A DNA stretch of 63,092 nucleotides, the filler included, from Aduncisulcus paluster (lineage: Eukaryota): assembly GCA_024181965.1 (NCBI GenBank). It is 5 parts of 5 records of this genome, joined end to end, with 100 filler letters (N's around TTAATTAATTAA, not from the genome) between each part and the next. Parts side by side here need not be neighbours in the genome. Positions count along the whole stretch, not along the records: positions 14,983 to 28,478 come from BQXS01011313.1; 4 more parts are not named here. One strand, 5' to 3'. Under the pieces are notes generated by a model, which did no database searches, was not told where the DNA came from, and saw only the letters and a list, made by a program, of their open reading frames with translations. The first letter of the stretch is position 1. Every line of letters begins with the position of its first letter. Position numbers and translations under genes: made by a program. Shown piece by piece: positions 3,001 to 32,136 of this stretch.

Positions 3001-3153
3001 ATAATCAAATTTAGATTGTGAAACTTTAATAACTCTATTCGATCCAATAGCCTTATCTACTGATTTACCTTGGCAAACCTGATATAACACATGCTCTATG
3101 GATCCAATCACTTTAAGACAAAAACGAAAAATAGTATGTCTGTCAAATTCCAT
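88..3153 (-). CDS. Hypothetical 1021-aa protein: helical N-terminal part, Ser/Thr/Pro-rich C-terminal tail with many TP/SP sites
   Basis: Long ATG-initiated ORF with protein-like composition. No family recognised. Confidence 0.8.
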   Translation of the reverse strand: MEFDRHTIFRFCLKVIGSIEHVLYQVCQGKSVDKAIGSNRVIKVSQSKFDYGYIREECENDGMFFNELCNSAEKITKTLLGIAKSSDIVSKGKEKLRKSAIKAERIARGCMLLSTIFRAGGKAEEKYSFNADSNNVLINEIFNRISETFDEDQDFKYFSHPPISFPENLRDLISISLYANETHIYSIPILSMYLIHSWSDRRLQDHSSEEEDDSDDSIHVMIAFDELFDKDEEEFAMLLLSIDRKLCTITRGSQESDESTESETEEESIEPSESTDADSSLSRALSKFHLSSTLCGILLDTCLSPFFVSAALASIGESNEAREVLSECERVRVAADIDGNYTFASPSDPERLRFHDSPSNSANPNSMSSASEQSQPVSPGIQSAMTTSSSSFFVSRNTSGAFDESFGISSTISPAVGPEFSQSPAQLSVANGFIGSKSVSGSIVAGSTAVLSSPSRPSASLTLCRRLRSSEERLGLFDSLQPSLYELSLAVLIMGHCGYVSDALEILQDMMVVVQGSVGMPKEKIVAIIGRGEPCIISDEDEDDERKVRLRQISKTRGAFVSPISRDIYSVLGLPKDVSFPLLSPLSLFLSSVQQLCFSCLRQGTSSELFYSSKIPLHLLDVFRLCALASIQTLPLYCMSFLCCPVLNVRVKKIRDDTEVGTCMEYPSIHSAEREMSEDTHAFAELLELTPCQLSECVWQWACLEVRKRATKAVEESGAASREYRSTLMRACHLLRDIGKIILLKSNSGWNDSRTSDASKSPSRMKQKELVERGALVCETIAVWIREWVLAEYSGRDDLSISGHLTSSYTLGVSSISAPGVGQLSPQPLSLPHDSPKRVGFFEPSVASTNSPHPSSVHEGAVKRKASTHRRVTFAEPQDTSEKVSQHKYVPTPRFGSHLRTPKYVASSPFVSRFATPIASFTPAMNMTPYGASGMESSGTPVSGIHELGSVRPSSSQRHVHFSGAQSTPSTAFGGMSGSMSPGTPLRTPRAPHGMDSSFSASDGMSDPFSPGQYNVDDAAK

Positions 3154-3526
3154 TTTTGGTCCGTGAAAGGTATCAGAAAAGGGCCAAAACTTTGAATCTT
3201 TATTAATTTATTTAATTTACTGAAAAAAACTGATTTCACTGGATAAATCAAGCTCGCATAGAATATTAGTTGAGGGATATAATTTGATAATATCCCAAAA
3301 AGTTTGAGAAACCGCATATAGAATCGTATTTATCCTCGGGGCAACTACTTTAATGCACAAAATAATTATGAATAAAATACATTTATGTAGCATATACACA
3401 TAGATTAAATCCTGTTATAGTCATTTTTATTGCTTAAGTCAATAGAAATTTTTAAAACTACGGGTTTTGCCCTAATAAGTCCATTCAAATTTATTTTTAA
3501 TAGTTTAAATTCAAATAATATTAATA

Positions 3527-6500
3527 ATGTCGGACGATTTAGACTATTTACAAAAAACTATTGATGAAATTGACGACATGGATGATTTTCTCGATGAGAA
3601 GCTCCTAGAAGACTTTTCCTCGTTTGGTGATGATGACGGTGGCGCTCCTCAAGGTAAATCAGATGAATCAAGTAGTGATGCCGATGATATATTGGGGGAA
3701 AAGAAGGATATGAAGAGTGAACAAGAAACAAAGAAAGATGATAAAAAAGAGGAGGAACATAAAAAACCGATAGAACCAACCACGAATAAGAGACAAAAAG
3801 AGCACCAATCAGGATTTTCTGAAGGGATGAAACAAATTCCTCCACAAACCAAACCCACAGAAAAACCCTCTCGTCCAATTCCAAATAGAATATTTAGACG
3901 CGGAAAGGAATCATTTTCCCGTGATAAACCGAAGGATGATTCAGAAATTCAGCGTATTAGTGGCAAAATGTCAGGTCTTAAAAGTGATGAATCAGCCACC
4001 AAAGACTCATCTTATGAGCTTATCGAAGAAGAAGTATACGAATATGAGGAAGAATACATTGAAGATAATGAACAAATAGGAAATCAAACATTGTCAAATA
4101 TTTCGCGGAGAAATTCAGGTATGAAAGAATCTGAACGTTCCGCTGGACATATTGCTCGTGACTCAATCCCATCAAGAGGCACCAAAAGTGGTTCTGTCTC
4201 CTCATATGTCTCTAAACCTACTGCTTCTATATCATCAAATACATCTGCTCAATCTCAATCTTCAGTTTCTCAACCAAGAGCAACAACTCGATCATCTGCT
4301 CCTGGAAAAGGATCCAAACCTTCATCTTCGGGGTACGCAAGACCCGTTAGTCAGAAGATAAGTCCCTTCTCATTCGCCACCGGGGCATCTCCTTCTTCCT
4401 CCTCCTCGACTATTCCCCCCTCTGTGACTAAAACAGTGGCATCCGAACGGCAGAGATCAGCGTCAACTCCACCGACAGATTCCCCATTTGTGTCTCAGAG
4501 AAAAGCAGCCGATATCTACTCCCAGAAAACTGCCGTATTTCTCAAACAATCACAGTCTCACTCAGATCTTGGAAAAGGAGTTACCAAGGGTCGTGGTCCA
4601 AGTCCTCTTGGGTCGAACAAGAGCAGAGATCAGTATCAACCGCCCCAACAGACCCCCATGGAGAAAGAAGATACTTCGTCACTCTCTTCTGTCCAGAAAG
4701 AAAAACAACCTACTGTCACGACTCCAAGGCGGAATGCCTCCTCGATATCTAGTTTATTTCTCAAAGGATCTCGCCGTATTGCTTCTTCTTCTGCTTCCTC
4801 TTCTGCCAAACCATCACCTTCAACATCTATGCAACAACTCAATCAGGGATCTCCACGTTTGGATTCTGATAGAACAAAGCCTGTTTCGATTCCATTGATG
4901 AGATCGCCAAGTGGGGATAAACAACCAATTAGTTCTCAATCAACACGTGGGTCCACTACTTTTTCCTTCACTTCCCCTTCCAAGTCCCAAAAAGTGGCTG
5001 ACACTCCCCCCTCCAGTCAGCTCCACCCTCAACAATCAGAATCAAGAGAGAACAATAGAACAACGGTATCAACTCCTCCTTTGTCTCCAAAAATAGTAAG
5101 GAATGAAGAAACAAGAATGAAGAAACAAGGGTCAACAACAATGCTCCCACCTGGCCGTTCTATTTTGACTCCTACAGTTGGTATTGATCAAAGATCTCAA
5201 GATGAGCTCATTGATAGGGTAACCTCCGCTTTAACCTCCAATCTTTCGTCCTCTCTGCAGTCTTCGTGTGGCTCCTCAATATCATCGATGATAGAGTCCC
5301 TTGTTCCGCAACTTGCTTCTCAACTCACAAAGCAAATGAGTGACCAACTTAGCGCAAGTATCGGATCTGTTCTTGCTTCCTCTCTCACAAGTGCTCTTGC
5401 AACCTCCTTGAGCTCTTCACTGAGTCTTGCAATCGTTGACACTGTCCCTTCGAGTGTGGCGAGTTCCTTGACCTCAGCTCTCTCCTCTTCCACTTCTTCT
5501 CTCTCTGAAGCTGTTTCTGGAGTGTTTATAAAGAACATGTCCAAATTGGATAATATTATGCATGAAAAGGTTAGGGACATGGAAAGTGTCAAAAATTTGC
5601 TATCAAGGTTTCTGTCCCATTCCCATTTTACTCAAGAGGAGAAATTAGACGCTTTACGAAAGGATTTAGAACGTAAACAGGAAGAACTAAGTATCGACAG
5701 GGTCAGGCTTGTTCAAGAAAGAGCAGATATCAAGGCAGCCAAAGAATGTATTGAAGTGGAAAAAAGGGTCCTTCATGAACGTGTTGATGAATTGAAAGAG
5801 GAGAGACGCTCCCTCCAAGACAAAGAAGAGAGTCTTGGGAGAAAACAACATTCCCTAGATCATCGAGAAAGAGAACTCGTGGACCGGGAGGCTATTCTCC
5901 GTGCTGCTCAACGATCATCTGAGCAAAATCTGCTTGATGCCAAAGAGATACGACGTCACGTGGAAGAAGAGAGACAACGTCTGGTGAGAGTTCGAAGTGA
6001 GTTGGATGGTTTACAACTAAGAATTAATTCGGAGCGGATCCAACTTGTCAAAGAAAGAAAAGAGATGAATCTGGAACAGGCGAAAGCTCTTGCGTCGATT
6101 TCTGCCGCGTCAGTTCGTTATCATTCAACCTTGCAACAAGCACATGGATTTGATAGTCAAATTCCTATCCTTCGTTCCCTTCCAGCTGCTAATTCAATGC
6201 CATCGTATCACCCCTCTTCTGGAAGCCATATACCTGCTATTCACGGTATTCATGGATCACAATATGAGATGTATGAAGCTGCGAATTATGGAGCAGGGAT
6301 TGCTGCTCCCTCTGTTGCCATGATTATGAGAGATATGGAAATGAAAGCAGAGAGAAGAGCAGAGAGGAAATCACGGCATAGGTCAAGGTCCAGGTCTCAC
6401 AGGAAATCAAGGAAACATCACGAAGATATCGTATTCATTGATAATGATGATGAAGATGAAGAATTTGACCTTCCAAAGAGACATGCAGAAGCTTCAGTCA

Positions 6501-10147: not shown

Positions 10148-10247
10148 NNNNNNNNNNNNNNNNNNNNNNNNNNNNNNNNNNNNNNNNNNNNTTAATTAAT
10201 TAANNNNNNNNNNNNNNNNNNNNNNNNNNNNNNNNNNNNNNNNNNNN
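10148..10247. other. Artificial contig linker (N44-TTAATTAATTAA-N44)
   Basis: 100-nt spacer with stops in all six frames; identical at four places in the window. Confidence 0.97.
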
Positions 10248-10746: not shown

Positions 10747-11035
10747 TTGCAACAAAAAAAGGCAGTTCTTTTGACAACTTCTATTTTAGCTCGATATTAC
10801 AATAAATTTTTTGCAAGAAAAATGCATAATTCATCCTATAATTATTAATTTTCGTAATTACATTAAAATGATTGATCGATTTAACGTGATGCGCAACTCC
10901 GTTCAAAGAAAAATTCCATATTGATGTTTAAACATTGAAAATGAAGGCTGAATCGGGATTTATATGCCGATTTAACCCAAAATTCCTGCAACATATTTAT
11001 CTCAATCCTATATTTCAACTTTTCATTATTTTCGA

Positions 11036-14000
11036 TTGCCTGATTGCTACAATACAAAAAGGAATAAATCAAAAACAAAAATCCCACTTATATACCACAT
11101 TAAGGCAAATCAAAAAGATCAATTTGCTATCAAATCAGTTTTTGAAAATAATCAACTTGATCTATTGTTTGCTGCATCTGATGCAATAATGAGAAAGAAT
11201 GTTGCCGCATTGAAAGATTACCTTTCAAGCTATTATAATTGGCTTATAACTTATAAGAAAAAACGGAAAGAACGGCTTCAGCAGCTCCTCCGTTCATTGG
11301 AGGAATGTAAGATGCATAAACGGCTGGCTGCCGAACTTATTTTTACATTCAGAGCCCGAGAAACAATGTTTTTAAGATCTCGCCGGTGTGGTATGAATAT
11401 GAAATCGTTCCATATCCTTTCCCCCATCTCTAAAGGTGGATACAGTACAGTATATTTAGTTAAACATAAGAATTCTGGCAGAATCTTTGCATTAAAACGG
11501 ATGAAAAAGGCTAAGTTTAAAGGAGATAAAGCCATGAGGGTTCGGACTGAACGAGCAGTCATGTTGTTTGGTGCTGATCATCCTTTTATCATTAAATTAC
11601 ATTTTGCCTTCCAAGATGGTGACAATTTATGTCTTGTTATGGATTTCTGCCCTGGAGGAGACCTTTGTCAGTTGTTATCCCTCGTCGGTGCCTTCGATGA
11701 AGAGAGCGCAGCCTTTTATATGGCAGAAATCCTTGCTTCGATTCAATCAATTCACAAAGAGGGCTTCGTCCACCGAGATCTGAAGCCCAGTAACTTTTTA
11801 ATTAACGAGAAGGGTCATCTTATCCTTACTGACTTTGGACTTGCAAAGAAAGTCATGATGACAAAACAGCGTCCTATTTCCAAGAAGAAAGAGAAAGAAA
11901 GCGCTAGTCACACCTCTGCAGACACCTCACAAGACCAGCAAAATCACCAAGAAGATCCCCCTCAATACTCTGCCCCTTCCTCTACGCGAGTATCTCCCTA
12001 TTCTGGCTCTCCCCCATCCTCTCCGGATCATTCTGCGAGCTCTTCTCCCCCCAATCCTCTTTCCTTCTCTGTTGTAGGCACTCCCAACTACATAGCCCCT
12101 GAAGTCCTCATGGGTGAGGGCTATGGTCGTGCCAGCGACTATTGGAGTGCCGGATGCATGTTATTTGAGCTCATATGTGGCTATGCCCCGTTTATTGGGG
12201 ATTCCCCACAGAGCGTATTCAATAGTATTCGTGCTCGAGGCTACAACCCTCCTCCCCGTCCTCCAGATTTAGTTAGTGATCTGGCCTGGGATTTAATATG
12301 TAATTTATTGACTGAACCTTCGAACAGACTTGGTGTTGGGAAAGAAAAAGACCAGCGTGGCTTTGACTCTCTAATGCGTCATCCTTTCTTCGATTGCCTC
12401 CATGAAAAGGTCAAAACAGCACTCAAGTCATCTAAGAAGGAAGAAGAACAGAAGGAAGAAGAGAAGGAAGAAGAGAAGGAAGGATCTGTGGATTTATCCA
12501 AGAAACAACAGACTTTGGGGTTTCAACTCTTACATCATATTTCCCCTCCTTTCATCCCTCAACTATCTTCTTCCACCGACTTGACCTATTTTGCTGATGC
12601 CATGAAAGGAAAAGGCAGCGTAAGCCTTGAAATCGATGATATTCCCCTCTTCCAAGTCGATTGGGAAGAATCTGATGATGTTAGTGGCGAGCAAAGGATG
12701 ACTTCGCATATCGTCGATGGTGAAATTAGTACTTCTGCACGGAATGAGGAGTATGAAGATCGTGGAGAGCGTTCACCAGGCTCCGATTCATCCACACAAG
12801 ACACTGACTGGACGGAAGAAGAGGAGGAGTCTGATGGAGACTCGCAGCCATTTCATTTAGATGAGCTTGAACAATCACCTAGAACCCCACAGGACTCTCG
12901 TGATCTATCTTCCCTCCTTGCAGAGCATCCTGCCTTTACATCTGCCCTTTTGTACACCCATAAGGCGAATCGCAGAGGGAGGGAGAAGAAACGGCGAAGA
13001 AAGGCCCGGAAACGGTTAAAACCGGCCAAAGAACATTCGAGTGAAGCCGAAGGAATGACTCGATACAAATCAAAGACTTTCCCTCGCTCTAATGCTACTC
13101 TAAATCCCCAACCCACTGACCCAGGCCTTGATAACACTCCATTGGCGGAACCTAAACGTATCAAGCGTGCTGTTCTGGTTGAAGATATTCCTCATGGCGG
13201 TCTGAGTGAGGCTGACGATGGCTCTACTGAGGAAAGTCAACATGCAGTATCTGAGTCAGCATCTTCCTCCCCCGTTCCTCAACAAATCCCTCTTCACCCA
13301 ACGACTTCCCAACCTAATCTGCTTGAGGAAATGAGCGAGTCGGACGATGAAGTTCAAATAGTGGCTACAATCCCTCATCAGGCTCCATCCTCTCACTCAG
13401 AGTATAGTGATGTCATTATGGACGATCACGATGATGCTAGTTTTGACAGTGCTGAGTATGAATATAGTTTTGGGATTGATCCAAGTATCAGCGAAGTCAC
13501 GAATGGGGATTACTTGAGTGCCGTTCCTCACCATCTCTTCTTAAATCGTTCTTCTACTCCCTCATCTCCAAACATGAGCCGTGTTTCTCTAGGTGCTGGT
13601 GATAGTGTGAGTCTCCATCAAAGCCAGTCAGGAGGTCAGTTCATGCCTTCTCTTCTCTCCTCTCTCTCTCATTCACATACTCCTCATCACACATCTGGTT
13701 CATACTCCCGTCGTGTCAGCCTTGACCATACCAATGAGGGAATCGATCCAGGTGTGTCAGGGAGTGTGTATATCCATGGTCTTGCATCCGCTCGCAACAC
13801 CTCGAGCAAGGACTTGATATCTGCTTCCTCGAGGACAGATAGCAAACAGGATATCAGCAGTGATGGTACAAGTTCAGTGCCTTCTGCATCTGGCGGGATT
13901 GATGGGCAAGTGATTGAGGAGAACTCTGATGAGAACTCTGAGAAATGGAACAAGAATGTCCGTGATCCATTCCTGGAGGACATAGCCGATATGAGTGACC

Positions 14001-14882
14001 CCCAGAGAAGGGACAGTTCTAGTCGAGACAGTGAGCATCGAACATCTGTACCTGCACTGTCTTCACTCCCTTTCCAGTCATATTTCTCTTTCTCCCCTCT
14101 GACTTCACCAAGAGAGGATGACGAGACAACTCATAAGAATAAGACAGGCGGATCTCAACAAGCAGATCAGAAACCAAGACGTAGATCTTCATTGAATGCT
14201 TACAACGGTAAAGGTGGCTTAAAACCTGGACCTATCTCTCCAAGAAGTAGATTTGAAATGGAGATTGCTACGGCATCGTCTTCTTCTCGTTCTTCCACCC
14301 CCCAGAACATTGTTGACGATATCTACTCATCAAATCCCATCCTCTCAACTCAAAGCGAGGCCGAAAAAGGCTCTCGCCCTCACATTCCTCGTTTAGATGT
14401 TCCCAATCGTCAATCCTCAACTCATATTTCAAACGTATCGTCATTTAGATCGTCTCAACACTCGAGATCTCGGTCATCTTCAAGCATTCACACAACTTCT
14501 CTATCTTCTCGATTGCCTCCCCACATGTTACCTTCCTCTCCAAAAGCTCCCCTTCTCTCCTCTTCGTTGTATTCATCATTCGGCAAGAAAGAGCATAGGG
14601 ATAAGTCCTCACGCAGGAGAAGAAACAAACCAAGATCCTCGAACCTTAGACTCAAGCACTCTGGCAGTAATCCTATCCTCAACTCCTCTGGAAGCATCCA
14701 TGAACTTGAAGATCCCTTCGATTCTACTGATCTCCCCCTTCCTTCCTCTCCAAAGCAAAGCAGTTGTCGCTCAGCCAGGGAAACATCCAGAATCATTGAC
14801 ACATCTAACTTGACTGCACCTCTCCATGATGAGTCTGTGAATTCATCTGATATTCTCCCGAGCTTAGAAGCCAGTGGAAGTG
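11036..14882 (+). CDS. NDR/LATS-family (Dbf2/Sid2-like) AGC kinase with a long disordered C-terminal tail; 3' truncated
   Basis: MOB-binding N-terminal region (R..R...ETMFLRSRR), GGYSTV, ALK, HRDLKPSN, DFG, an activation-loop insert, SVVGTPNYIAPE and the AGC tail PPFIP...DLTYF. First in-frame ATG is at 11189. Confidence 0.88.
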
Positions 14883-14982
14883 NNNNNNNNNNNNNNNNNN
14901 NNNNNNNNNNNNNNNNNNNNNNNNNNTTAATTAATTAANNNNNNNNNNNNNNNNNNNNNNNNNNNNNNNNNNNNNNNNNNNN
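14883..14982. other. Artificial contig linker
   Basis: N44-TTAATTAATTAA-N44. Confidence 0.97.
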
Positions 14983-16201
14983 GAGAATGACGGTATCCCT
15001 CTCTCGAAGAATGGAATGAGGAGCCAGGTTCCTTAATAGCAGAAGGAGGATGGACTTTATCAGGAGCTCCAACAGTTGTTCCACTAACAAATTCATACAC
15101 TTCTCCGTTCTTTTCACGAACCCTCCACACAATACCTTCCCCAAGAATAGCCGTCGCGGCAACCTTAAGAGCTTCCATCCCCGTTTTCTTGAGGATAGAG
15201 AAAGGAATCACTTTGTTATTTTTAAGACAACGTTTAGTGTGGGCACTGTCTCGAGTGCTTAAATACTTATATAGACCGCTCTTGATATACTTCTTGGGCC
15301 TTGTAGATGATGTTGACACAGAGAACTGGACAGTACCTGGCTGACTCTGAAAGGATGTCAAACCTTGGGACCCATTGCTGCCCATTGCAAGGGAGGAGAG
15401 AGCTGTTGCAGATGAAGAGTGTGAGAGAGTGAGAGATGGATGAGTTGAGGGGAGAGGGGCTGGGAGGTTATACACACGAGTGAGCATAGAACGAGATGAG
15501 GCCAAAGATGAAGATGATGTTGATGTTGTGGTGGCATGGGAAGGTCCAGTTGATGATGATTCACGCCTAGGGGGACGACCCCGCCGTCTCCTACGCTGTT
15601 GTTGCATCTGCTCAATACGCTGTTCTTCTTCTTCTTCCTCCCTTCGACGTTGTTCGTGTTGTTTTTGCAAGGGATATTGATCACAACAGGAAGCAGGTAC
15701 GACAATAATCTTGGGAATAGCTTTTTGACGGGATCTTTCACTATCCGCCTTCCTTTTCTTCTTATTTTCCAATGTTGAAATGATTTGATCTATTTTCTTT
15801 TTCTCACGGGCAATGGCCTTGGACTTTTTCTTCTGGAGCAATTCTTTCTCTTCCTGATCACTACGAAGATTTCGAATTGCCATTTTCATCTCTTTATATT
15901 TATAATTCATACCTTTTTCGAATTTAATTGAATAAGAATATATTTCAGACCTCGCATCATTGAATTTCTGAGCATTTGTACTAATCAAACGAATGTCTGA
16001 CATTACCTCATCAAAAGTAAAATATTTATCTTCTTTTAACTTATTTTTAATTGTCATTAGATCCATAGGATGTTTAATAGCCTTCAAATATGTTGGAAAA
16101 GCTTGAACATCAACAGGCTGATAAAATAGCTTATAAGAATCTAAACTAAATGCGGCCTCAATGAGTTCATTGCATGTCCGCTTTAGATCGATTGAACTCA
16201 T
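14983..16201 (-). CDS. Bromodomain protein with an AT-hook; 3' truncated
   Basis: FYQPVD..FPTYLKAIKHPMDLMTIKNKL...Y.TFDEV..D..LI..NA.KFN bromodomain signature and RRGRPPR AT-hook. ATG at 16201. Confidence 0.88.
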
Positions 16202-16397
16202 TGGGTGCGTTTCGAAAAAGACAAATAACCGTTGGGAGAATAGTGGAAAAGATAGAGAACTAGGGAAAATGATCAAACAATGAATATACGCAATTTATCA
16301 TTTTTTCTTTCAATTGATGATGCCCCGATTGTGAGTATCCTCCAGAAACGATAAATGGCTTCTTTTGGCTCACTTGGGGATTATTTTATTTTAAATT

Positions 16398-19300
16398 ATG
16401 ACTAAATTAGTCCAAAAAAATAATTCTTGGCCTGAGTTGAGGATAGCTGTCATATCTGATACTCATTTAGGACTTTACGATGATGATACAAAAAACAAAC
16501 AAAGGGAAGATGATTCGTTTCGGTCTTTCGGGGAAGCTTTGAATGTAGCTCAGATTTGGGATGCTGATTTGATTCTTCATGCTGGAGACCTCTATCATAA
16601 GATTAAACCAGAACCTTTCACAGTTGTTAAGACCATGCAAATGCTACGCCATTTTTGTATGGAAACGCCAAAACAGCGACATGTGTGTAGAGAAAAGTCG
16701 AAATTATGTATAGTTAATGATTTATTAGGCTATTATCATATTCCTTTCTCAAGCTCAATTGGTGGTGGTCTTTCTCATTTTTCACAAGCTTCCATGCCTT
16801 TTTCATGCATTTGGGGGAATCATGATTTTGGAACAGGTCTGAAAAAAGTATCTCCACTCCATTCATTATCTGAAAGTGGCCTCTGTGGTCTTCTTGAAGT
16901 CACTGAATGCCGAGAATCTTCCAAACGATATGTCGGCAAGCAATCATCCAAAAGAGATGCTGGAACATGGATTTCATCCCTTTTATCAGATGGATCAGAT
17001 GATTTAGATGAAGATTCTGATATTGTGGATGTGATGGAAGTTCACAGTTCACGCCCCGTTCCAAATCAAAGACCATCTTCCCACCGTACTCCCCGTGCTC
17101 CATCGAAGAAACCCAGTGTATCATCGCCCTCACGTGATGTTCCAGATGTGTTCTCCCAGACTACTGTCACTGTTCATCCTCTCATGCTGTATCACCCTTC
17201 AACCCAAATTCTTGTATGTCTCTATGGTTGTGGATACCTCCCTGAGGATCTTTTGTGGGATCTAATCAATGAGAGTAAGAATGCCGGAACTGTATTGCAG
17301 GACGATATATCCGCTAAGAGGGCTCAAGAAAAGAGTAGGGCTTCTGGTGATAGACGCCAGAGTGTGAGTTCTGAACGTCATAGTCCCTCTGGTCTTGAGC
17401 TGATCCCCACAGATTGTCCCCGAGGAATATGGTTTGTCCCTCCGCCGTCCTTGGAGGAGATTAACTCACGTCTCCAAGCTCTTAAAGTTCACAGTGGTAT
17501 TCGTGGGGCGACATGTCATGATGACCCCATCATCGAGATATCAGCAATTGTTCCTATTCTTCTTGTGCATCAAAACAAACAAAAACGTGGACATGACGGT
17601 CATAAGAAGATATTTGAACAAAAATTTGTTCCTCACTGGATAAACCTCATAATATGGGGCCATGAACACGAAGGAATGAAGAATGTTGAGTGCTTTTCTC
17701 GTAATAGTTCTCTCGGCCATAGCAAAACCCATGTGATCATGACTGGGAGTTCAATTGTTACCAGTGTGAAAGAGTGTGAAGACTATGTCATCTCATGTGA
17801 TAGAGGAAATGCCAAGGGAGTCCACTTGATTCAAATATCATCGAGGACTCAAGGACAGACAGCCTCCACATCATCAAAGGGTACCCCGACAATAGAGTCT
17901 GGATCGCCTTCAACAATTCACCGTCATGATGATGATTACCGATCTCTATATCGAAGGCTCCAAACACTATCAAATAAGATAAGAATATCCAAATTTCCTC
18001 CTTCTCCTTCCTCATTATGTCTAACTTCATTCTTCCAGCCCTTATTCCGACACCGATCGGTTTCCGATTCTCTATTTTTAGAATCGATACGAGACCATTC
18101 CCTTGTTAAGATGGGTTGTTTCCTTTCTTTCGGCACCCCTTGTCCTATTCCTGTCTCATTTCGATTCAAACATTGGAAATATCGTTCCCTTAGGGCTGTA
18201 ATATGGGAAAGGATTGATTTTCCTGACTCTTCGATGGGAGAGGAATCCATTCTGGAGAATATCGGTCTTAGAATACACAAGAGGCATCAAGAATATAACA
18301 GGGATATTATCCAAACAGTTCATCGTGAAATGGGAATGAAACGGGCCATACAAGCTTATTTATCCACCCCTAGTCCAGATGCTGCACTCAAACAGCAGTA
18401 TCAATTGGCCAAGAGTGAGATTATGACCAAACATAACGGCCGCAGTGTTATAAAACAAATATATTCGAAGGAACCTGTGCTTGACGTGATTCCATACCTT
18501 CCTAGGTGTTTTCTTAAGACCCCACACCCTCCTATATTTATGCTCTCTCTCGGATTACCGCTGAGATATGCTAAGCTAGTCGATAGTTCCAAAAAGATCA
18601 TTGTTGACAAAGGCCTAGCTATCAATGCGTCCGATTGTGTTAGAAGGAGGCAAGCAAAGATACCGAGTGTGAATGGAATGAGTGGTTCAAAATCTTCAAG
18701 GACCCTCCTCCCAGATTTGAAACGATCTGCCCACATTGATTCCGTTCCTCTTGTTGAAGACGATGAGGATGAGGCTGCAGCGCTATTCGAAAGCATTCTG
18801 GTTGATTGCCTTCTCGATGAGATGCAGGTTCAAAAGAAGATAGCCACGCTCCCACTCCCTCTTGCCGAGGATGAAGAAGATCCCTCTAGATCTCATCATG
18901 GACAGGGTGATATTAATGTTAGAGAGGAAGAAGACTCATCCAGCAGTATGCATGAGGACTCCACGAGTAATGATGATGATGATTGGCAGATTGGCAAGAG
19001 TAAGAACAAGAAGGGTGGTAGGAAAAGTGATAGCCATCGTTCTTCTTCTGCAAGAGGAAGGAGAAGATCTTCGGTACATTCTGCTGCTCACTCGAAGTCC
19101 TCTGTGGGATCCAGTACTCCTCGTCGAAGTGCCGATCAGTCTCTGTTGGAAAAGACCGATATTGATGCTATTCTTAAGACATTTAGAGTTGATGGTGACA
19201 AACGAATCCTTATTCACGATCGCTTACTTGATATGATGAGACATCAAGCACAGGATAGTCAAGTGACGGAAGACTATGAATCCAAAGCAACTGACCTTGA

Positions 19301-20192
19301 CGGACACGTGAAGTTTGTCAAAAGAGTGCATCCAGATCAGAGTGGAGAGGCACGTGTGTTCGGACATATTACGTATGCTGAGGATAAAGCTGAGATTATG
19401 CATGTCACATCAATGTTAATGCAAAAACATGATAGGTTGCAATTATCCCAGCTTATTGATGGCAAACAGCAGCAGCAAGGAGCGACAAGCAACAAACATC
19501 TTAGAAGATCGTCTCTTTTGATCCCTGACGATACTTCGATACCTACAGCCTTGTCTGTGATCAAGAAACCTTTTCAAATGAATACCACCAGTGACCTTCT
19601 CAAACTTGTCAATAGTATACGCCTTAAGAATGTCAGTTATTGGCGAAAATTGGTAGGAAATGATGATGAAGACGAAGAAGATGAAGAATCGACACCAACC
19701 AAGACGAAGAAAAGATCAAGAAAAATGAAAACAAAACAGAAGAAGCCAAGATCAAAAGATATTGATTATGGTGAAATTGTCCTTGAGTCTGCCCTTTCTA
19801 GACTACGTGAACAGGTCTCCAAGAAGAAGTCATCATCCGCCTCTTCATCAAGAGGTTCCTGTCGTCCACCAAGCATTCTAGGCGGTCCCTCTGATTTAAA
19901 ACGCTTCCAACAGGACATATGGATGCAAGAACAGGAACATTGGTGTGACCGTGAGATATATCACTTTAGGAACGCTCTGACGCAGCAATTGAAAGAAGAA
20001 GAAGAGAAGAGCAGACGTAGATTGGCACAAATGGACGGAGAGGAAGAGGATGAGGAAGAAGAAGAGTTTCAGGTTTCCCAAAGGAAAGAGAAACAGAGGA
20101 GAGATGAAGTGGCAAAGCGTCAGCTAATATTGAGGGGACAAGCAAAAGTTCGTGAAGAAGAGGAAAGCAGCGGGCAGGAACTTGATTTTTAA
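16398..20192 (+). CDS. MRE11: Mre11 double-strand break repair nuclease with large insertions
   Basis: All five phosphoesterase motifs in order: SDTHLG, AGDLYH, GNHD, LVHQN, WGHEHE. Also R.DDSFRSF.E typical of eukaryotic Mre11. Confidence 0.9.
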   Translation: MTKLVQKNNSWPELRIAVISDTHLGLYDDDTKNKQREDDSFRSFGEALNVAQIWDADLILHAGDLYHKIKPEPFTVVKTMQMLRHFCMETPKQRHVCREKSKLCIVNDLLGYYHIPFSSSIGGGLSHFSQASMPFSCIWGNHDFGTGLKKVSPLHSLSESGLCGLLEVTECRESSKRYVGKQSSKRDAGTWISSLLSDGSDDLDEDSDIVDVMEVHSSRPVPNQRPSSHRTPRAPSKKPSVSSPSRDVPDVFSQTTVTVHPLMLYHPSTQILVCLYGCGYLPEDLLWDLINESKNAGTVLQDDISAKRAQEKSRASGDRRQSVSSERHSPSGLELIPTDCPRGIWFVPPPSLEEINSRLQALKVHSGIRGATCHDDPIIEISAIVPILLVHQNKQKRGHDGHKKIFEQKFVPHWINLIIWGHEHEGMKNVECFSRNSSLGHSKTHVIMTGSSIVTSVKECEDYVISCDRGNAKGVHLIQISSRTQGQTASTSSKGTPTIESGSPSTIHRHDDDYRSLYRRLQTLSNKIRISKFPPSPSSLCLTSFFQPLFRHRSVSDSLFLESIRDHSLVKMGCFLSFGTPCPIPVSFRFKHWKYRSLRAVIWERIDFPDSSMGEESILENIGLRIHKRHQEYNRDIIQTVHREMGMKRAIQAYLSTPSPDAALKQQYQLAKSEIMTKHNGRSVIKQIYSKEPVLDVIPYLPRCFLKTPHPPIFMLSLGLPLRYAKLVDSSKKIIVDKGLAINASDCVRRRQAKIPSVNGMSGSKSSRTLLPDLKRSAHIDSVPLVEDDEDEAAALFESILVDCLLDEMQVQKKIATLPLPLAEDEEDPSRSHHGQGDINVREEEDSSSSMHEDSTSNDDDDWQIGKSKNKKGGRKSDSHRSSSARGRRRSSVHSAAHSKSSVGSSTPRRSADQSLLEKTDIDAILKTFRVDGDKRILIHDRLLDMMRHQAQDSQVTEDYESKATDLDGHVKFVKRVHPDQSGEARVFGHITYAEDKAEIMHVTSMLMQKHDRLQLSQLIDGKQQQQGATSNKHLRRSSLLIPDDTSIPTALSVIKKPFQMNTTSDLLKLVNSIRLKNVSYWRKLVGNDDEDEEDEESTPTKTKKRSRKMKTKQKKPRSKDIDYGEIVLESALSRLREQVSKKKSSSASSSRGSCRPPSILGGPSDLKRFQQDIWMQEQEHWCDREIYHFRNALTQQLKEEEEKSRRRLAQMDGEEEDEEEEEFQVSQRKEKQRRDEVAKRQLILRGQAKVREEEESSGQELDF

Positions 20193-20536
20193 AGAAAGAA
20201 ATTTGAAGAACAAATGCAAGTTTCTCGGTTAGGAAATATATAATTTGAACCATCATTCATTTATTAATATCAACATAGTATATCAGCTTTTACGAGCAAT
20301 GATTTGTATTTATTTAATAATTATTAGATAAATCGAATAAAATTTCATGTCTGATCAAGGTATCAACCGAATAAATAACATGCCAAACCTTTGGGGGGAG
20401 TATTGTAATTTCGACATCAAATATCGATATAACCTTTAAAATATTTATTCAATAATTCATGATATTATCGCATACAGCCAAAATCCCAAGGGAAAAATAT
20501 CCTCTTAGCAATAATTCGAGAATCGAGGAGATGCAA

Positions 20537-20821
20537 TCAAAATGCTTTGGTAGCTATTAATCCTTTGGCTTTTAACTCTTCCTGGAACATCTTTTCCTCA
20601 CGTTTAAGCAACTCTTTAAGTTTCTGGCGATTTTCAACCAATTGTGCTTTTCTACTAAGGAATTGTTCCCTTTCAAGCTCAATATGAGTACGAAAACGTT
20701 TTGATCTATCAATTACTTTTGAATGTTCAGCACAAAACTTAGTCCTTTGAGCATCGAGAGCCATTTGAGATACATTAATTTCTGGCTTTGTATAATCAGT
20801 TTTACGGAACATTTGATACAT
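20537..20821 (-). CDS. Small coiled-coil ciliary protein, CFAP141 (C1orf189)-like
   Basis: About 94 aa. The C-terminal E...RKAQL..NRQKLKELLKREEKMFQEELKAKGL matches the pattern I recall for this family. Confidence 0.55.
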   Translation of the reverse strand: MYQMFRKTDYTKPEINVSQMALDAQRTKFCAEHSKVIDRSKRFRTHIELEREQFLSRKAQLVENRQKLKELLKREEKMFQEELKAKGLIATKAF

Positions 20822-21033
20822 TTTTAACAATTTTTATGCGATATGGAAGATATAATTTTTATAATAACTCAATTTAGTGCTGAAGATTGGCGTCAGTGGA
20901 GCAAAATCCAAAGCAGAGAGTGGAAACTCAGGTTAAACCGTATTATGAGGAAATTTTTACAAAGATACAAGCTTTAGGGAGAATATTGACGAATTTTATT
21001 TTCATATTTCTGCTTTGCAGCGGTGTGCGATAG

Positions 21034-21820
21034 CACTGCTATTTCGGATGGTTTTCTCTCGCCTTAAAGGGTTTGGCGACATCACGGCTTTTACCTTTGG
21101 ATTGGATGTGGTGGCGTGTAGAGCCTAAGAATTTACAAATATATTTCATTAGTGAAGATGAACACAGAAAGGTATTTTCTCTTTTCGTATTTTCATCCCT
21201 TATTTGACATCATAGCTATTAATCTTTAGATTTTATGGAAATAGGGCAGATTTGCAACATCTATATTGGGATATGATGTTTCATTCCCATATTCTCTTTT
21301 GTTTAAACCTTTTGAATATAAGGTTTCCAAGGATCTTATCCACCAAGGAAAAAAATATTCTGTCCCAAAAGAAATTTCTCTCATTCTTATGAATGAACTG
21401 GTATTATCGAGGTTTGCAACCCCTCATTTTGCTGTTCATCTTCCCTTTACCCTCGGGTTTGTTTATTTTGTCTATCTTAGGAGTGACGGTTATCTGCGAG
21501 ATATATATAAGAGAGATTTGAGAAGATGGATAAATCAATTAAGGTCCGGTTTGGTTGAAGCAAAATCAATGTTTAGTGTTGTTGTATATATTGACATATC
21601 CCACCAAGATATTCAGAAATCGGAAGAAGAGAAGAAATTGGAAATCGACGAATTTATTTATGATATTGATATTTCTTCTTGCTCGAAATTGTGTCCTATT
21701 ATGGCAATGTCATCGAAAGAGGATTCGAATGCTGTATTTGAACAAATGGTTGTTTTTATGTTGAGACACAAGAAGACTGATAAGTGGTCTGATTGGTTGC
21801 GGTGTGGTATATGTGAATAA
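21034..21820 (+). CDS. Spliced gene, possibly a degenerate small-GTPase-like fold; predicted intron 21172-21244; 5' end unresolved
   Basis: GTATTT...AAATAG joins ...IYFISEDEHRK to GRFATSILGYDV... in frame with ORF 21266-21820. Pattern FVYFVY...LRRWINQL...MSSK..SNAVFEQM loosely resembles Ras-family G-domain strands. Confidence 0.45.
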
Positions 21821-21847
21821 TGGGCAGATCATTGTCATTCTTTATTT

Positions 21848-22135
21848 TTGTTTGTCCGATGCCACAAAAGATAATTCATGGTGGGGGAGAAATCACGAAA
21901 CCACGATTTTACACAAAAAAATAATATAGAGCTGCATGTGACCCTGTTTTCAAGGGCCATTTCCGCAATCCCTGGTTCATCAAGGATAAAAACGTTGACT
22001 CAACGTTATCGGATAACATTGGACTCTGGTTGTCATCATGAAGGACACCGTGATTCTTCAGCTGCATTAAATATTGCTGAATTTGGTTATTATGAGTTTC
22101 TAGGTATCCCAAGACCTCCAGAATTCGGATTCTGA
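21848..22135 (+). pseudogene. Fanzor/TnpB-like nuclease C-terminal remnant (zinc-ribbon end plus RuvC-III)
   Basis: GCHHEGHRDSSAALNIAEFGYYEFLGIPRPPEF matches C...RD..AA.NI...G..RP..F. A frameshifted FVCP/RCHK first Cys pair is possible at 21848-21870. Confidence 0.65.
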
Positions 22136-22290
22136 TCTCATGAATTAAACGAACCAACCAAGCTGGATCCATTGAAAGAATAAAAAAATCTCAACTAAAT
22201 TGGATCCATTTTATTCGACAAGTTAATAACACTCGCTATACAGTGCCCAGTGGGCAAGAAAGTGTTTACAGGAAGAATTAGACAATTATC
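22136..22290 (+). ncRNA. Candidate omegaRNA scaffold downstream of the Fanzor remnant
   Basis: Stem TGGATCCA 22164-22171 with TGGATCCA 22201-22208. Nested stem AACACT 22228-22233 with AGTGTT 22261-22266 enclosing TGCCC-AGT-GGGCA. Position is that expected for an omegaRNA. Confidence 0.35.
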
Positions 22291-22454
22291 AGGGCAAAAA
22301 ACTCCACATTCTTCATCATATATCTTCATATTTCAAATTCTCTTGCCCAATATAAATCGATGATGGCCAACGTGATGATCATGCCTCGAGTTGTCTTTTT
22401 GCCTTTAATACTTGCCGCCACAAGGGTATTATCATTGTTGAAAGATTAAATCAA

Positions 22455-25400
22455 ATGTTTAGCTCTTTGTTACAGGCTAGTTTTGTTGTATATATATCCT
22501 ATGTCATGGATAATGGTTCAAATTCTCTTCCGCGTAATTTTTATGTATTCCTTGGATTTATACTGACAGTTGGCCTTTTAATACTGTATTTATTCTCAAC
22601 TTTCCCCGAGTCTACCACTTCAATTAATTATTTTGAAGATTTGCCCGAGCTCTCTGAACTCACAGGTTCTGGCTGTTATACGCCCTTCCCACTCAAAATC
22701 TGCAATCCTTTTGCTCTTCAAGATGGTTATTGTAATCATTATACCGATCTTCATGTTATTGATTCCAAAGATAGTATTCTTTCTTTTTCTTCTGTTTCTT
22801 GTGGTTCTGTTTATTTCTTTTCCTTTGTTGTCAATTATCAAATCAAATCATTATCCTTCCAGCCAATGTCAAAGTTGAAATTTCTATCAGACCATTGGTC
22901 ATCCCTTTATTTAGCCTTTAAAAGGGACCATTCAAACCTATCGTCTCCACTTAGTCTTCTCCTTGTTTCTGCTCTCTTCATGTCTCTTGTTTTTGTTGGT
23001 CTTGTTCTTATTGTCATTTTTATTTTTTTTATTTTTTCTATTATTTGTTTCCTTGGAAATAGAATGAGATCTATTTCTCCAAGTCTTATATTTTTGGTTG
23101 TTTTGAGTGTTTCCTTGCCCTTTGTTCTGGGTTTCGGTTTTTCTGAAGAATGCGCCATGTATATCTCTGGAGATGATCATTTGGAGTGCAATGAGGTATA
23201 TCCTGGTCGTTATGCGCCCGAGTGTATAGATGGGTATTATTATGACCAAGGAGAGTATTCGTGTGTTGAAGATAACAGCAATTACTGTCCCAATGATATG
23301 AATGATCATCAAATGTGTGTGAAAACGACTGGTGATACCATTTCATCTGACTGTCGATCTGCATGGTATGGAGTTGATTGTGACCAATTGTATTCCGTGC
23401 ATATCCCTGACATTTTATTTAGAGGGAGAATTTGCGCTGCTGCTGGATATACGGTTGATGCTTGTGATGTCACAGTGTTCGAGATGGCCGAGATAAGTGC
23501 ATTTTGGGCTGGGAATATTCATATTAAGACATTAGAGGGTGCTCAACATTTGTTAAATGTTTATTTATTCAATTCAATTAACAGTGATATTACTGGTGGC
23601 AATGTTCTTGCTTCCTTGGGTCAATTGACAAATTTGTATCCTGGCGTTGATACTGGGGGGTATACGATAAATATTTATGATATTAATTCGTTAATAGGTC
23701 TTAACAGGTTACAAAAATTTTATATTTATGGCAATGAAAGGATTTATGATATCTCATTGGCATATAAAAACATTGGAATGTATCAATTTCGTACAAGTGT
23801 TAACTATGGAAATTTTTCAAAGATTCCACTTTGTCATTCTGAAGACAATTCTACATATCAGAGTTTTATTCTATCGATATTTCCGGGATATGATACCTCT
23901 GATATGAATATATTTATGTTGCCAAACAGCTGTCCACTGAATACTACTCAATTTTACTGTAGCTCAATGTCTTTTCCAAGCATATGCCCCTCAATTGTCC
24001 GTAATGAAGTTTACAATAGTCTTGATGGAATTAATGCAAAGGAATGTGCTTCCATTGCAAAAACAAGTGGATCTGTGGCTAACAATGATCTTACTTGTTA
24101 CACTGTTCACGATGATTCGATTCGAGACTATCTTATTACTAATTGTTTAAGTACTGGTGCTCTTGACTCCGGAATCATCAGTGTTGCCACGATGCGAAGT
24201 GTTTTATCATGTCTTGATCCTGATAATAATGAGTCGCTGTCAATACCATCAATTGCTTCAAGCAGGCTCTTATCCTCTGTGAATTCCATCACGACTCTGC
24301 AAGGTCTTGAATATGCCACTTCACTGAAATTTTTGACCCTTGATGGGTATGACTTGAGCGGTAATGTAAATGCCAATGCTGAGTACGATAAGTTGGTTGT
24401 TCAGATTTTGGCAAAGGCTGTTGATTTTGGATCATTTAACTCCGGTCTCACATTTTTATCTGCGAATGACTGTGGTTTGAGTGCCATCAGTGATATTCTT
24501 GATTTAACTCCCATTCATTCTGAAGATATTGCCACCCGACCATTCAAACTGTCATCTCTGTGGCTTTCAAACAACTCCATCTCTGATGTATCAGTATTAA
24601 TTACAGAACCTTTTTTTCCTGAAAATGTTCTTTCATCTCTAGATATTAGTGGGAATAATATTTGTGATATTGATACTGTGACGAGTGCTCTTATTCTCCA
24701 TTTCACGAATTTATCATCTTCCAATATTCTCTCATCTAGTCAATCATCATGTCCATGCACTGACCTCTATCCTCTGTCTTTCTCCAAGCATAGAACTTGT
24801 CGAAAGACTTCTGCTGGAGTGTATCGAGTTGAATGTTGGAATGGGTATTATTGGGATAAGAACTCATCGACATGCATTGAAGCTACATCAGATAATGATA
24901 AACTTCGATGTCAAGTTTGTGAACGTAATGGAACAGTGCCAACAGTTTATATGGATAGCTCTGAGATTTTGTGTGGAATCTGTGGCCTTGGATATCATGG
25001 AGATACATGTGAATACGTTGACATTCCCGATTCCAACCTTCGAAGTGCTTTGTGTCTGGCTGTTACCAATCCAAGTGCTCACGATTCCTCCTGTGATGAT
25101 TTAACTATTGCAGACATGGCTACTGTGACTTCTGTGAGTGCTTCACTTGTGGACTCCTTTGAAGGTCTTCAACATGCTGTGAACCTCACATCTTTATCCA
25201 TCTCTGGCACTTCATCTAGTTCTGTGTCCATTGGGAATACTGATCTTGCTTACCTTCCTTTGTCATTAACTGATTTAACTCTTGAGGCTGTCTATCTTGA
25301 TGCTGATAGTGATTTCACATCATTTACAAATATTACAACACTCTCTTTGAAGAACAATTCTTCGTATGATTTGACTAATTCTGCTCTTTTTCCATCTACA

Positions 25401-28400
25401 TCAACCTTCACATCTCTTGATGTTAGTTACACAGCATTGTCTTCTTTCTCTTCCATTCCAACCTCAATCACGACCTTGACTGCAAACAACTGTTCCTCAC
25501 TGACGAGTTTTTCAACCATCTCCAATCTCACGAATCTTGTCTCTCTTGATGTGAGTTATGCCTCAAATGTATCAGACTTTTCTTCTTTGCTATCTAATAT
25601 TCCACTATCAACATCTATTCTCTATGCCAATGGATGCAATGTTGCTGCCAATACTGATTTTTCAACATTTACAGCTCTCACGACACTCTCTTTGAATGGC
25701 AACACAGATTATGATATCACCGAGTCTGGCCTTTTCCCTTCAACAACAACTTTCACTTCTTTCAGTGCCAACAACACTTCAATCTCTCTGTTGTTCCATC
25801 TTGTTGCTAGCATGCCCAATCTGACTGAACTATCTCTGAACAACAATAACATCTCTGATCCTTCCCCATTGTATGCATTATCCAGTAGCTCTTTATGGGA
25901 CAGTATCGATCTATCTAACAATGCTATCTGTGAGGATGGAATCGATGATGCTCTGAACGTTCTTAACAATATATTTACTTCTTCCCCTGATATTGTTATC
26001 AGTGTTGGTACTCAAGACTGTCACTGTTCGACAGATAATCCAAGTTTATCTGATAACAAGGTGTGTGATGAGACCAAGCCTGGGTCTGGTGTATGGTATG
26101 TTGTGTGTGCCAGTAATTCATACACGTCATATACATCTGCTGAGGACTTTACATGCATTTCTCCAGGTAATGTTGATGGTACATATGGATGTTCTGGAGG
26201 GTGTGAGTATGGGCAAGAGTGCAGATATGACTCAACCTCAACTTCAACATCGTGTCAGCAAGTAATAGTCGATGAGAACTTACATGATTGTGTTGCTGAC
26301 ATGTTTGGAGCTAATGATTACTTACATCGAACAGAAGATGTTCCTTCCCTTTTCAGCGTCGCATCCTTGAAAACTCTTGTAACTACTGAACTGTCCGATG
26401 GGACCTTTGTAAGAGGACATATGTATTACAATCATTCTTCCAATTTCATCACTAGTCTCTCCGGAATTGAACATCTGGCTTTTGTTACATATATTTTTAT
26501 TCGATATTTCGACATTTTAAATGATAACCATGTCAATCTCTTGTCAACCCTTACCAACCTCAAATATCTTTATTTATACTCCCATGGTTATGGTTCATCC
26601 TCCTTTTCTTTGCCAGATTTCCCAAATATTTCTGGTCTTGAGACTTTATATCTCAATAATTCAATCATAACTTTTCCTTCAGATGAGTATGTTCTTCCCT
26701 CCTCCCTCAAAANNNNNNNNNNNNNNNNNNNNTCCGGAATTGAACATCTGGCTTTTGTTACATATATTTTTATTCGATATTTCGACATTTTAAATGATAA
26801 CCATGTCAATCTCTTGTCAACCCTTACCAACCTCAAATATCTTTATTTATACTCCCATGGTTATGGTTCATCCTCCTTTTCTTTGCCAGATTTCACAAAT
26901 ATTTCTGGTCTTGAGACTTTATATCTCAATAATTCAATCATAACTTTTCCTTCAGATGAGTATGTTCTTCCCTCCTCCCTCAAAAGGTTATTGATTGCAA
27001 ATTGTAATATCTCTCAGGCTGGGTTTGAAAAGAATGTTGGCAGTGAGAATCTTTCTAATCTTGAAGAGTTGTATATGCGAGACACTTCCTTGTCTCTCCC
27101 TTCAGGTGAGAATATTCTTGCCTCTACGATTACTATTTTAGATATCTATGCAACTTTAATCGACCAGGATGGGTTTGATGGGAATATTGGAAATAATCAC
27201 CTGCCATATCTTGAATTATTATACTTTGGAGGAGAATATAATACAGTTACTTCAATTGAATCTTTATCCGTGGATCAATTAGCATCCATTAGCAGCTTTT
27301 ATTTTAGTAACTATCCAATTTATGATGGATTTAATGAAGTTATTTCAGAAATGACTAATTTGAATTTGATGTATTTAAATAGTTGTAATCTCCTGAATAT
27401 TCCTGATTTGTCAAAGAGTGCATCTACTTTGACGGAAATCGTCATTTATTACAACCCTGATATTACATCATTGGCTCCATTGGCTGAAATGGGATTATAT
27501 TCATTAATTACTCTCAACTTTGGAGGGTGTTCAATTTCTGATCTTTCTCCTTTGTATGATTTCCCTGAGATTAATGGTGTTAATTTTTCTAGTAATAATA
27601 TCTGTTTTGGAAATGAGGGAAGTTCTGAACTTCAGAACAAGTTTTCACAATCATCTAACATTAACCCCATTTTAGGATCACAAACATGTGAATGTTCCTC
27701 TGATGACCTCGGACCAACTCCGATCATTGACAATATTGTCTGTAGTGAGACCAAGCCTGGGTCTGGTGCATGGTATGTTGTGTGTGCCAGTAATTCATAC
27801 ACGTCATACACATCTGCTGAGGACTTTACATGCATTTCTCCAGGTAATGTTGATGGTACATATGGATGTTCTGGAGGGTGTGAGTATGGGCAAGAGTGCA
27901 GATATGACTCAGATTTAAATTCAACATCGTGTCAGCAAGTAATAGTTGATGAGAACTTACATGATTGTGTTGCAAATATGTTCGGAACAGATTCCAATGG
28001 AGATCCTATTTATACCCACAGAACAGATTCCACTCCTTCTCTATTCAGCGTGGCTTCTCTCCATACCCTTGAATCTATGTTGGACTCTGAAACTGGTGAG
28101 TCCTCTCCTTTCATCACATGCTCTGATAGCTCAGTATCTGATGTGTCTGGTGTTGAACATCTTGGCAAGATTACAGAGTTTTCATTGGATAACAACCTTC
28201 TCTCCGATGTATCCAATCTTTCCCTTCTCTCCACATTATCTAGTCTTACGGCATTGTATTTGTCTGAAAACGCTTCGTTATCAACTCTTCCGGATCTTTC
28301 CAGTGTTTCTCTTGTTTCTCTTGGGATTAACGGAACATCTATTGCATTATCCGATACATCCGACTCCACTTTGTTAATCCCCGACTCTTTGGTCCAACTG

Positions 28401-28478
28401 CGTATGTACGACACTCCTACTGTCCAAGCAGGGTTTGACACTCAGGTCGGTTCGAGTCACCTTAGTGGTTTGAAGATG
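22455..28478 (+). CDS. Large secreted/surface LRR (internalin-like) and Cys-rich modular protein; likely start 23064; 3' truncated
   Basis: Many LxxLxLxxNxIxDxSPL repeats, IPDSNLRSALC caps and EGF-like Cys modules. Signal-peptide-like MRSISPSLIFLVVLSVSLPFVLG at 23064. Confidence 0.85.
26460..26985 (+). repeat. Duplicated flanks around the 20-N gap 26713-26732 (unmerged overlap)
   Basis: 26460-26712 is repeated at 26733-26985 with one visible SNP (CCA vs ACA). Confidence 0.9.
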
Positions 28479-28578
28479 NNNNNNNNNNNNNNNNNNNNNN
28501 NNNNNNNNNNNNNNNNNNNNNNTTAATTAATTAANNNNNNNNNNNNNNNNNNNNNNNNNNNNNNNNNNNNNNNNNNNN
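28479..28578. other. Artificial contig linker
   Basis: N44-TTAATTAATTAA-N44. Confidence 0.97.
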
Positions 28579-32036: not shown

Positions 32037-32136
32037 NNNNNNNNNNNNNNNNNNNNNNNNNNNNNNNNNNNNNNNNNNNNTTAATTAATTAANNNNNNNN
32101 NNNNNNNNNNNNNNNNNNNNNNNNNNNNNNNNNNNN
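32037..32136. other. Artificial contig linker
   Basis: N44-TTAATTAATTAA-N44. Confidence 0.97.

Follow-up and report, generated by a model that had tools for sequence, protein, structure and literature searches.

The window analysed here, meaning the whole 63,092-base stretch of DNA, comes from the GenBank assembly of Aduncisulcus paluster, a free-living protist that is a fornicate (Fornicata), as the first-pass annotation had guessed. Record BQXS01011313.1 supplies positions 14,983–28,478 of the window. Here, a spliced, expressed gene is followed by a small open reading frame (ORF) whose last part resembles the C-terminus of Fanzor1 nucleases. The features of the locus and its setting are:

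10976–14938, strand not given: kinase in the window, an ordinary eukaryotic gene.
16395–20192, strand not given: metallophosphatase-domain ORF, an ordinary eukaryotic gene.
21106–21171, plus strand: exon 1 of the upstream expressed gene, the first 22 codons of P0002 (tblastn, 100% over residues 1–22).
21172–21244, plus strand: intron 1, 73 nt, GT..AG.
21245–21820, plus strand: exon 2, a 191-codon ORF, with TAA at 21818–21820 if there is no further splicing.
21802–21954, plus strand: predicted intron 2, GT..AG, through which the public model connects the 191-codon ORF with the Fanzor tail.
21875–22135, plus strand: 86-codon stop-to-stop ORF, of which the last 33–37 codons are Fanzor-derived and the first ~36–50 codons have no relative.
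21926–22034, strand not given: segment shared with another A. paluster locus (1 mismatch, 2 indels).
21983–22156, plus strand: broadest similarity to the family at protein level (P0009 residues 389–446, P0007 residues 194–246), reading through the stop.
22027–22125, plus strand: core block of 33 codons (GCHHEGHRDSSAALNIAEFGYYEFLGIPRPPEF), matched by other A. paluster contigs, genomic and RNA-type, at a DNA identity of at least 80%.
22133–22135, plus strand: TGA stop, premature.
From 22356, strand not given: leucine-rich-repeat ORF, an ordinary eukaryotic gene.

The window contains four runs of N at 10148–10247, 14883–14982, 28479–28578 and 32037–32136 (pairs of 44 N with 12 bases between), as well as runs of 20 N at 26713, 51439 and 61770. 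The same stretch of ~70 residues of the leucine-rich-repeat ORF stands on either side of the gap at 26713–26732, which looks like a scaffolding or duplication artefact.

The 86-codon ORF ends, as the first-pass annotation had quoted, in DSGCHHEGHRDSSAALNIAEFGYYEFLGIPRPPEFGF followed by the TGA. Within the core block lie the final Cys of the second zinc knuckle and the Asp motif of RuvC-III, the latter reading HRDSSAALNI at 22046–22075 and aligning to HRDSLAALNI of the family; the sequence motif of RuvC-III with its catalytic Asp (RD..AA.NI) is present. Together, HRD..AALNI and GIPRPPEF are kept in the ORF tail as in the C-terminus of A. paluster Fanzor1. The second knuckle reads DSGC against CPGC or CTDGC in the family, so that its first Cys has been replaced. 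Longer copies run ~20 codons beyond the position of the stop (..EFCYSHQDLHHPRP..), and the flanks of the core block within 21983–22156 bear a weak likeness to the Fanzor1 family.

The window has a G+C content of 39% and uses the standard code, its long ORFs terminating at TAA or TAG. Under genetic code table 6 (TAA and TAG read as Q), a 381-codon ORF spans 20990–22135 in frame 2, where six TAA/TAG stops and no TGA occur before 22133. We judged this ORF to be a product of chance. Table 6 lengthened the long ORFs of the window only slightly, and it was rejected because the standard code gives these ORFs TAA/TAG ends. A read-through translation of 20990–22132, with X at the stops, was likewise set aside: its only Pfam match was to DOCK-C2 (E 0.2), and it had no match in the PDB.

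Next, the 86-aa peptide was compared with known proteins. A phmmer search against 1,835,955,588 representatives returned three proteins at E<=0.001. These were the peptide's own public model (P0002), the 559-aa protein P0003 of the same genome (E 9.9e-11, 67% identity, query positions 41–85), and a repetitive protein of 2048 aa (E 3.8e-4), which contains nothing TnpB-like and was judged spurious. A word-indexed search among longer proteins scored two of 69 candidates, again P0002 and P0003 (E 3.1e-10). By BLASTP, the peptide and P0003 share 31/49 identities (63%, E 5e-17), rising to 88% in the 33-residue core, and hhalign aligned 37 columns, of the tail only, with a probability of 98.6 and E 7e-16. 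The fragment accordingly has significant homology to a member of the Fanzor1/TnpB superfamily. The first-pass annotation had proposed a profile search, and its outcome was divided. The fragment alone scored 13.8 bits (E 0.068) on PF07282 (Cas12f1-like TNB), covering profile positions 43–60 of 60 and falling below the gathering cut-off of 26.3, while P0003 passed it with 37.7 bits. Because the fragment is below the Pfam threshold, its identification rests on its same-genome relative P0003. The comparisons support the proposal, made at first pass, that the fragment is what remains of a gene for a Fanzor/TnpB-type nuclease.

The surviving part of the gene was delimited with six family proteins. 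In tblastn searches of the window, four of the six (P0003, P0007, P0008 and P0009) matched one place, from 21983/22028 to 22144/22156, in the frame of the ORF and with E 1e-16 to 1e-17. The remaining two, P0005 and P0006, had no significant match, their best hits (E 0.58 and 0.017) falling in low-complexity sequence. Residues 1–488 of the family found no match in the window in any frame, and RuvC-I (G.D.G), RuvC-II and the first CxxC knuckle were not found there in any frame by the same method. A frameshifted CP/RCH Cys pair had been suspected upstream. The letters do exist (CP in another frame at 21853–21858, RCH in frame) and have no homology support; the distance down to the surviving knuckle is ~57 codons, where the family has ~20, and they are not colinear. 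Since no frame upstream of 21983 matched any of the six family proteins by tblastn, the pair is left unsupported.

The borders of the fragment were examined with contigs of two sequencing runs of the same sample, a DNA run (X1) and an RNA-type run (X2), whose assignment to RNA is a guess. At 80% likeness, 25 X1 and 9 X2 records were obtained, 14 of which were listed. Among these listed matches, contigs of other copies fitted the window only at 22027–22125 and diverged abruptly at both borders; their loose ends, before 22026/22027 and behind 22125, continued as family sequence (..TRLRKCTD and CYSQQHHH.., respectively). At positions 22059, 22079, 22081 and 22082, every other copy among the matches listed differed from the window, and five of the listed X1 contigs carried the family-type letters at these positions. 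The four differences change three residues (S/L, E/N, F/L), and all are amino-acid changes. No contig among the matches listed had the letters of the window at 21965, 22059 and 22079–22082, which we did not count as evidence, and the same applies to 20904–21020 and 22191–22424, where X2 gave no cover. The summed contig depth rose over the Fanzor block, a rise that does not represent a copy number.

The fragment had been taken for the 3' end of a transposon. It stems from close to the 3' end of the ORF, and no transposon end, inverted repeat or guide-RNA part was seen beside it, which is a weak test. Inverted repeats bracketing the fragment were not found, only short pairs that we took for chance; Rfam yielded no matches, and BLASTN of 20200–22400 against the window returned only the region itself and a 26-nt palindrome. 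Other copies diverge at 22125, inside the ORF and hence before any right end. Judged by its sequence, the fragment is a piece of ~100 nt, at most ~175 nt, that is catalytically and structurally incomplete.

Longer homologous ORFs of the same genome, whose existence the fragment had been thought to imply, were found in P0003 (GKT25273.1, 559 aa) and P0008 (GKT20938.1, 560 aa). By reading, both carry all motifs: LGIDPG, LLAYGD, VDEYHTSKLCPYC, C(TD/P)GC and HRDSLAALNI. The RuvC segments of P0003-type proteins were likewise assigned by reading (GIDPG, AYGD/DEYHTSK, HRDSLAALNI), and profiles cover only the last ~60–100 residues. Such proteins combine a eukaryotic genome with a TNB domain above threshold (PF07282). 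Four family proteins, including the two of ~560 aa with all motifs, are 94–95% identical, and the A. paluster Fanzor1 genes form a young, multi-copy family. The last 58 positions of the NCBIfam model guided_TnpB (NF040570) matched the family (E 5e-11 for P0009), with a score of 42.5 against the family cut-off of 100 bits.

The nearest language-model clusters of P0003 (0.98) consist of proteins from giant viruses that carry PF07282 and PF26935, and P0003 matched a giant-virus Fz1-like ORF with E 9e-7 over residues 436–530. Against the PDB, the sequence of P0003 gave two chance matches only (E 0.19 and 1.3), and the family profile reached only Cas12f (E 0.74), with no detectable match to solved Fanzor or TnpB chains. 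The fold test of a P0003-type protein gave a predicted structure with a mean pLDDT of 30.2. Searches for wider relatives of P0003 retained 3/7999 and 3/1502 candidates, all from A. paluster, and a viral scan with P0009 gave five pattern matches and no relatives. A motif scan returned 11 loci: two copies of the giant-virus Fz1-like ORF, eight TnpB-like ORFs of ~400 codons, among which L002 alone was scanned against Pfam, and one locus of noise. The relatives of the giant-virus Fz1-like ORF are three loci on one contig, and are therefore too few for a profile.

These three loci (L001, at 1815–4031 on the minus strand, L005 and L014) are copies, 99–100% identical, of a 634–739-codon ORF on a giant-virus contig of 335,593 bp. 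The ORF carries SADPG, LFGKASF, VNEYNTSKMCPGCG and DRDDVGSTNI, scores 27.2 bits on PF07282, and is a virus-borne Fanzor1-like gene. In A. paluster itself, several gene models combine parts of a Fanzor with unrelated sequence. P0005 shares 82% identity with P0003 across its first 59% before diverging; P0006 contains VGIDPGRS and a shared block of 40 residues; and GKT24803.1, a row of the supplement, is a 1577-aa model named 'Malic enzyme' that holds Fanzor parts and unrelated sequence. The three fusions are probably due either to insertions within or beside genes or to errors in the models.

The public model of the upstream gene, ADUPG1_009729 (P0002, 267 aa), consists of exon 1 at 21106–21171, exon 2 at 21245–21801 and a tail from 21955. 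In one X2 contig of 793 nt, intron 1 is removed and 21169/21171 is followed directly by 21243/21245; no X1 contig skips this intron. As the spliced joint is absent from the DNA run, we treated the X2 contig as a transcript, and as the contig lacks 73 nt that the DNA run keeps, intron 1 is real. The same contig is colinear with the window from 21243 to 21955, with no differences and no gaps, so that predicted intron 2 is retained; it ends at 21955 because repeated sequence begins there. The reading frame of this transcript ends with the TAA at 21818–21820, yielding a 213-codon product. Given that predicted intron 2 is read through, the Fanzor tail is more likely to be 3' untranslated or downstream sequence, and the last exon of the public model is probably false, an annotation artefact. 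Contigs of this kind cannot show a minor spliced isoform or the 3' end of the transcript. The 191-codon ORF has no significant similarity to the Fanzor family.

Two further duplicated segments lie in this region. The segment 21926–22034 (109 nt) overlaps the Fanzor block by 8 nt and differs from its second copy by one mismatch, a 6-nt insertion and a 15-nt deletion. The second copy lies at the end of a 12,348-nt contig from the DNA run and is also present in one RNA-type contig; neither of its flanks is related to those in the window, with loose ends at 21926 and 22034. For the segment 21710–21779, a look-alike in inverted orientation, with 5 mismatches and a 9-nt deletion, stands ~5.2 kb further upstream on one and the same DNA contig of 7,871 nt and is found in a 2,060-nt RNA-type contig as well. 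BLASTN did not find this look-alike in the window, and it may consequently fall in or near the N run at 14883–14982.

What is shown is the homology and how far it extends, which parts are missing, intron 1, and that predicted intron 2 is read through. The best explanation, to which we assign a probability of roughly 0.83, takes 22027–22125 (weakly, 21983–22156) for a dead piece of the 3'-proximal part of a Fanzor1 ORF belonging to the young, multi-copy A. paluster family. The piece has lost ~500 upstream codons, comprising WED/REC, RuvC-I, RuvC-II and the first zinc knuckle, together with the last ~20 codons, and retains the aspartate motif of RuvC-III, a single Cys from the second zinc knuckle and the GIPRPPEF tail. 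With these parts lost, as well as any candidate transposon end or guide RNA, it can neither act as a nuclease nor move. It lies 200–300 nt behind the stop codon of the expressed, spliced 213-codon gene, most likely in the 3' UTR or downstream sequence. It may have originated by truncation or rearrangement of an inserted copy, or as a short copy captured in break repair, and it presumably has no function. The spot resembles a patchwork of short, well-preserved duplicated pieces, which in our reading points to rearrangement or to filler that was copied in, and not to gradual erosion. Simple decay leaves unexplained both the abrupt borders and the 8-nt overlap with another repeated segment. Several facts speak against the dead-piece explanation: the fragment alone scores below the Pfam threshold, the frame is open for 86 codons and is shared with the upstream ORF, the public annotation has the tail as its last exon, and the upstream ORF has the D....SKLCP likeness and the PF26935 neighbours described below.

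The strongest of the alternatives, and still an unlikely one, holds that the whole of 21106–22135 is a strongly diverged, expressed and perhaps domesticated RuvC half of a Fanzor1, with ~280 nt of repeats inserted behind SKLCP and a tail refreshed by gene conversion. The frame is indeed the same throughout, with two TAA codons between the upstream ORF and the tail, and motifs can be lined up by eye in colinear order (LGYD/LGIDPG, VVVYID/LLAYGD and D....SKLCP/DEYHTSKLCP). For the last pair, six positions of the upstream ORF are identical to the family sequence, at a BLASTP E of 4.1. The segments 21710–21779 and 21926–22034 have look-alikes elsewhere. Moreover, the language-model neighbours of P0002 residues 1–207, the tail excluded, are at 0.88–0.90 clusters in which 12–76% of members carry PF26935 (DUF8286), from Mucoromycota, Chlorophyta and giant viruses, and the nearest clusters of P0003 share PF26935. 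This is a weak lead only. A language-model score of 0.9 arises for 4–10 in 100 shuffled proteins. Smith-Waterman alignment of residues 1–207 with P0003 residues 280–500 gave a score of 31, which 469/1000 shuffles reached; hhalign aligned the tail only, and the upstream part had no Pfam or NCBIfam match. Finally, the core block has only four common differences from other copies while the body yields no alignment, so a near-identical core beside an unalignable body needs an extra event, conversion.

We consider it less probable still that the tail is a genuine exonised coding exon, such that ADUPG1_009729 ends in a captured Fanzor C-terminus. Although splicing at the GT..AG borders 21802/21954 would preserve the frame, the ORF has no stop before 22133 and intron 1 of the same model is confirmed, the only contig with intron 1 spliced, among the matches listed, runs unspliced through 21802–21954 into the TAA at 21818. 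The captured piece would also be a broken half zinc knuckle with an isolated RuvC-III strand and no evident fold, and all its consistent differences from the family are amino-acid changes. Least probable is an assembly artefact in which a block from a Fanzor copy elsewhere was joined through short repeats: the long contigs of both runs do stop at 21955, and the DNA run resumes at 22097, but in one X1 contig (contig 7) the final 29 nt of the block (22097–22125), the length to be expected where a unitig begins with the first unique 31-mer, are joined with 0 differences to 875 nt of downstream sequence of the window, and the 8-nt overlap is too short for assembler joining.

Read as a dead piece of a Fanzor1 ORF, the fragment itself is one more relic of a transposon-borne nuclease gene, from a family already listed for the species. 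The A. paluster family, which had no detectable sequence relatives outside the species in these searches, may merit testing as a candidate RNA-guided nuclease from a deep-branching anaerobic lineage. The patchwork of preserved duplicated segments may reflect break repair with copied filler DNA. Public models of the assembly (ADUPG1_009729, P0005, P0006 and the 'Malic enzyme') fuse Fanzor pieces to unrelated sequence. If the upstream gene at 21106–21820 were a diverged Fanzor1 core after all, it would be a possible example of a Fanzor derivative transcribed, and perhaps domesticated, by a fornicate host.

The first-pass annotation suggested that Fanzors are not known to be characterised from fornicates. 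This holds for the main texts, none of which discusses any; three A. paluster proteins, among them P0009 (GKT27103.1), were nevertheless already listed as FZ1 in Supplementary Table 1 of Saito et al. 2023 (PMC10432273). The main texts of PMC10432273, PMC10711439 (Yoon et al. 2023), PMC10530073 (Jiang et al. 2023) and PMC3627910 (Bao and Jurka 2013) contain none of the metamonad terms sought, nor does one supplement of Jiang et al. 2023. In the portion of the supplement of Yoon et al. 2023 available to us, there is an entry for Carpediemonas membranifera, with GFDPG, CPHC and HRD.SAA.NI by reading. Nothing in the literature searched combines Fanzor with Aduncisulcus or a metamonad, and further supplements may list more. 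The A. paluster Fanzor1 family is already catalogued, yet unstudied, and since its longer copies were catalogued in 2023, the fragment is an ordinary molecular fossil.

Among known systems, the fragment is closest to the Fanzor1 copies of A. paluster, with which it shares the core (88% over 33 residues), HRD..AALNI and the GYYEFLGIPRPPEF tail; it differs from them in holding only ~6–10% of the gene, in three core residue changes, in its premature stop and in having no RuvC-I/II. With Fanzor1 at large, eukaryotic homologues of TnpB (SpuFz1, GtFz1; PMC3627910, PMC10432273), the A. paluster family shares the ..EY.TSK.CP.C.. knuckle, a second knuckle and RD..A..NI, and a Tribonema minus FZ1 row has a G..RPPEF-type end like the family. 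TnpB of IS200/IS605 (ISDra2) and Cas12f share the C-terminal TNB zinc ribbon and RuvC-III with the family; the match to them is confined to the C-terminus, whereas the A. paluster proteins have long eukaryote-type N-terminal regions. A parallel for the fragment's state is found in S. punctatus, for which Saito et al. 2023 (PMC10432273) count 42 loci whose Fz genes are either full-length (19) or partial. According to the same paper, ghost Spu-1 loci still have their two inverted repeats and a guide-RNA scaffold that works, whereas the similarity of the A. paluster fragment ends inside the ORF (22125). Like the fragment, the partial Fz genes and ghost loci described there are truncated leftovers of a multi-copy Fanzor1 family, scattered in the host genome.
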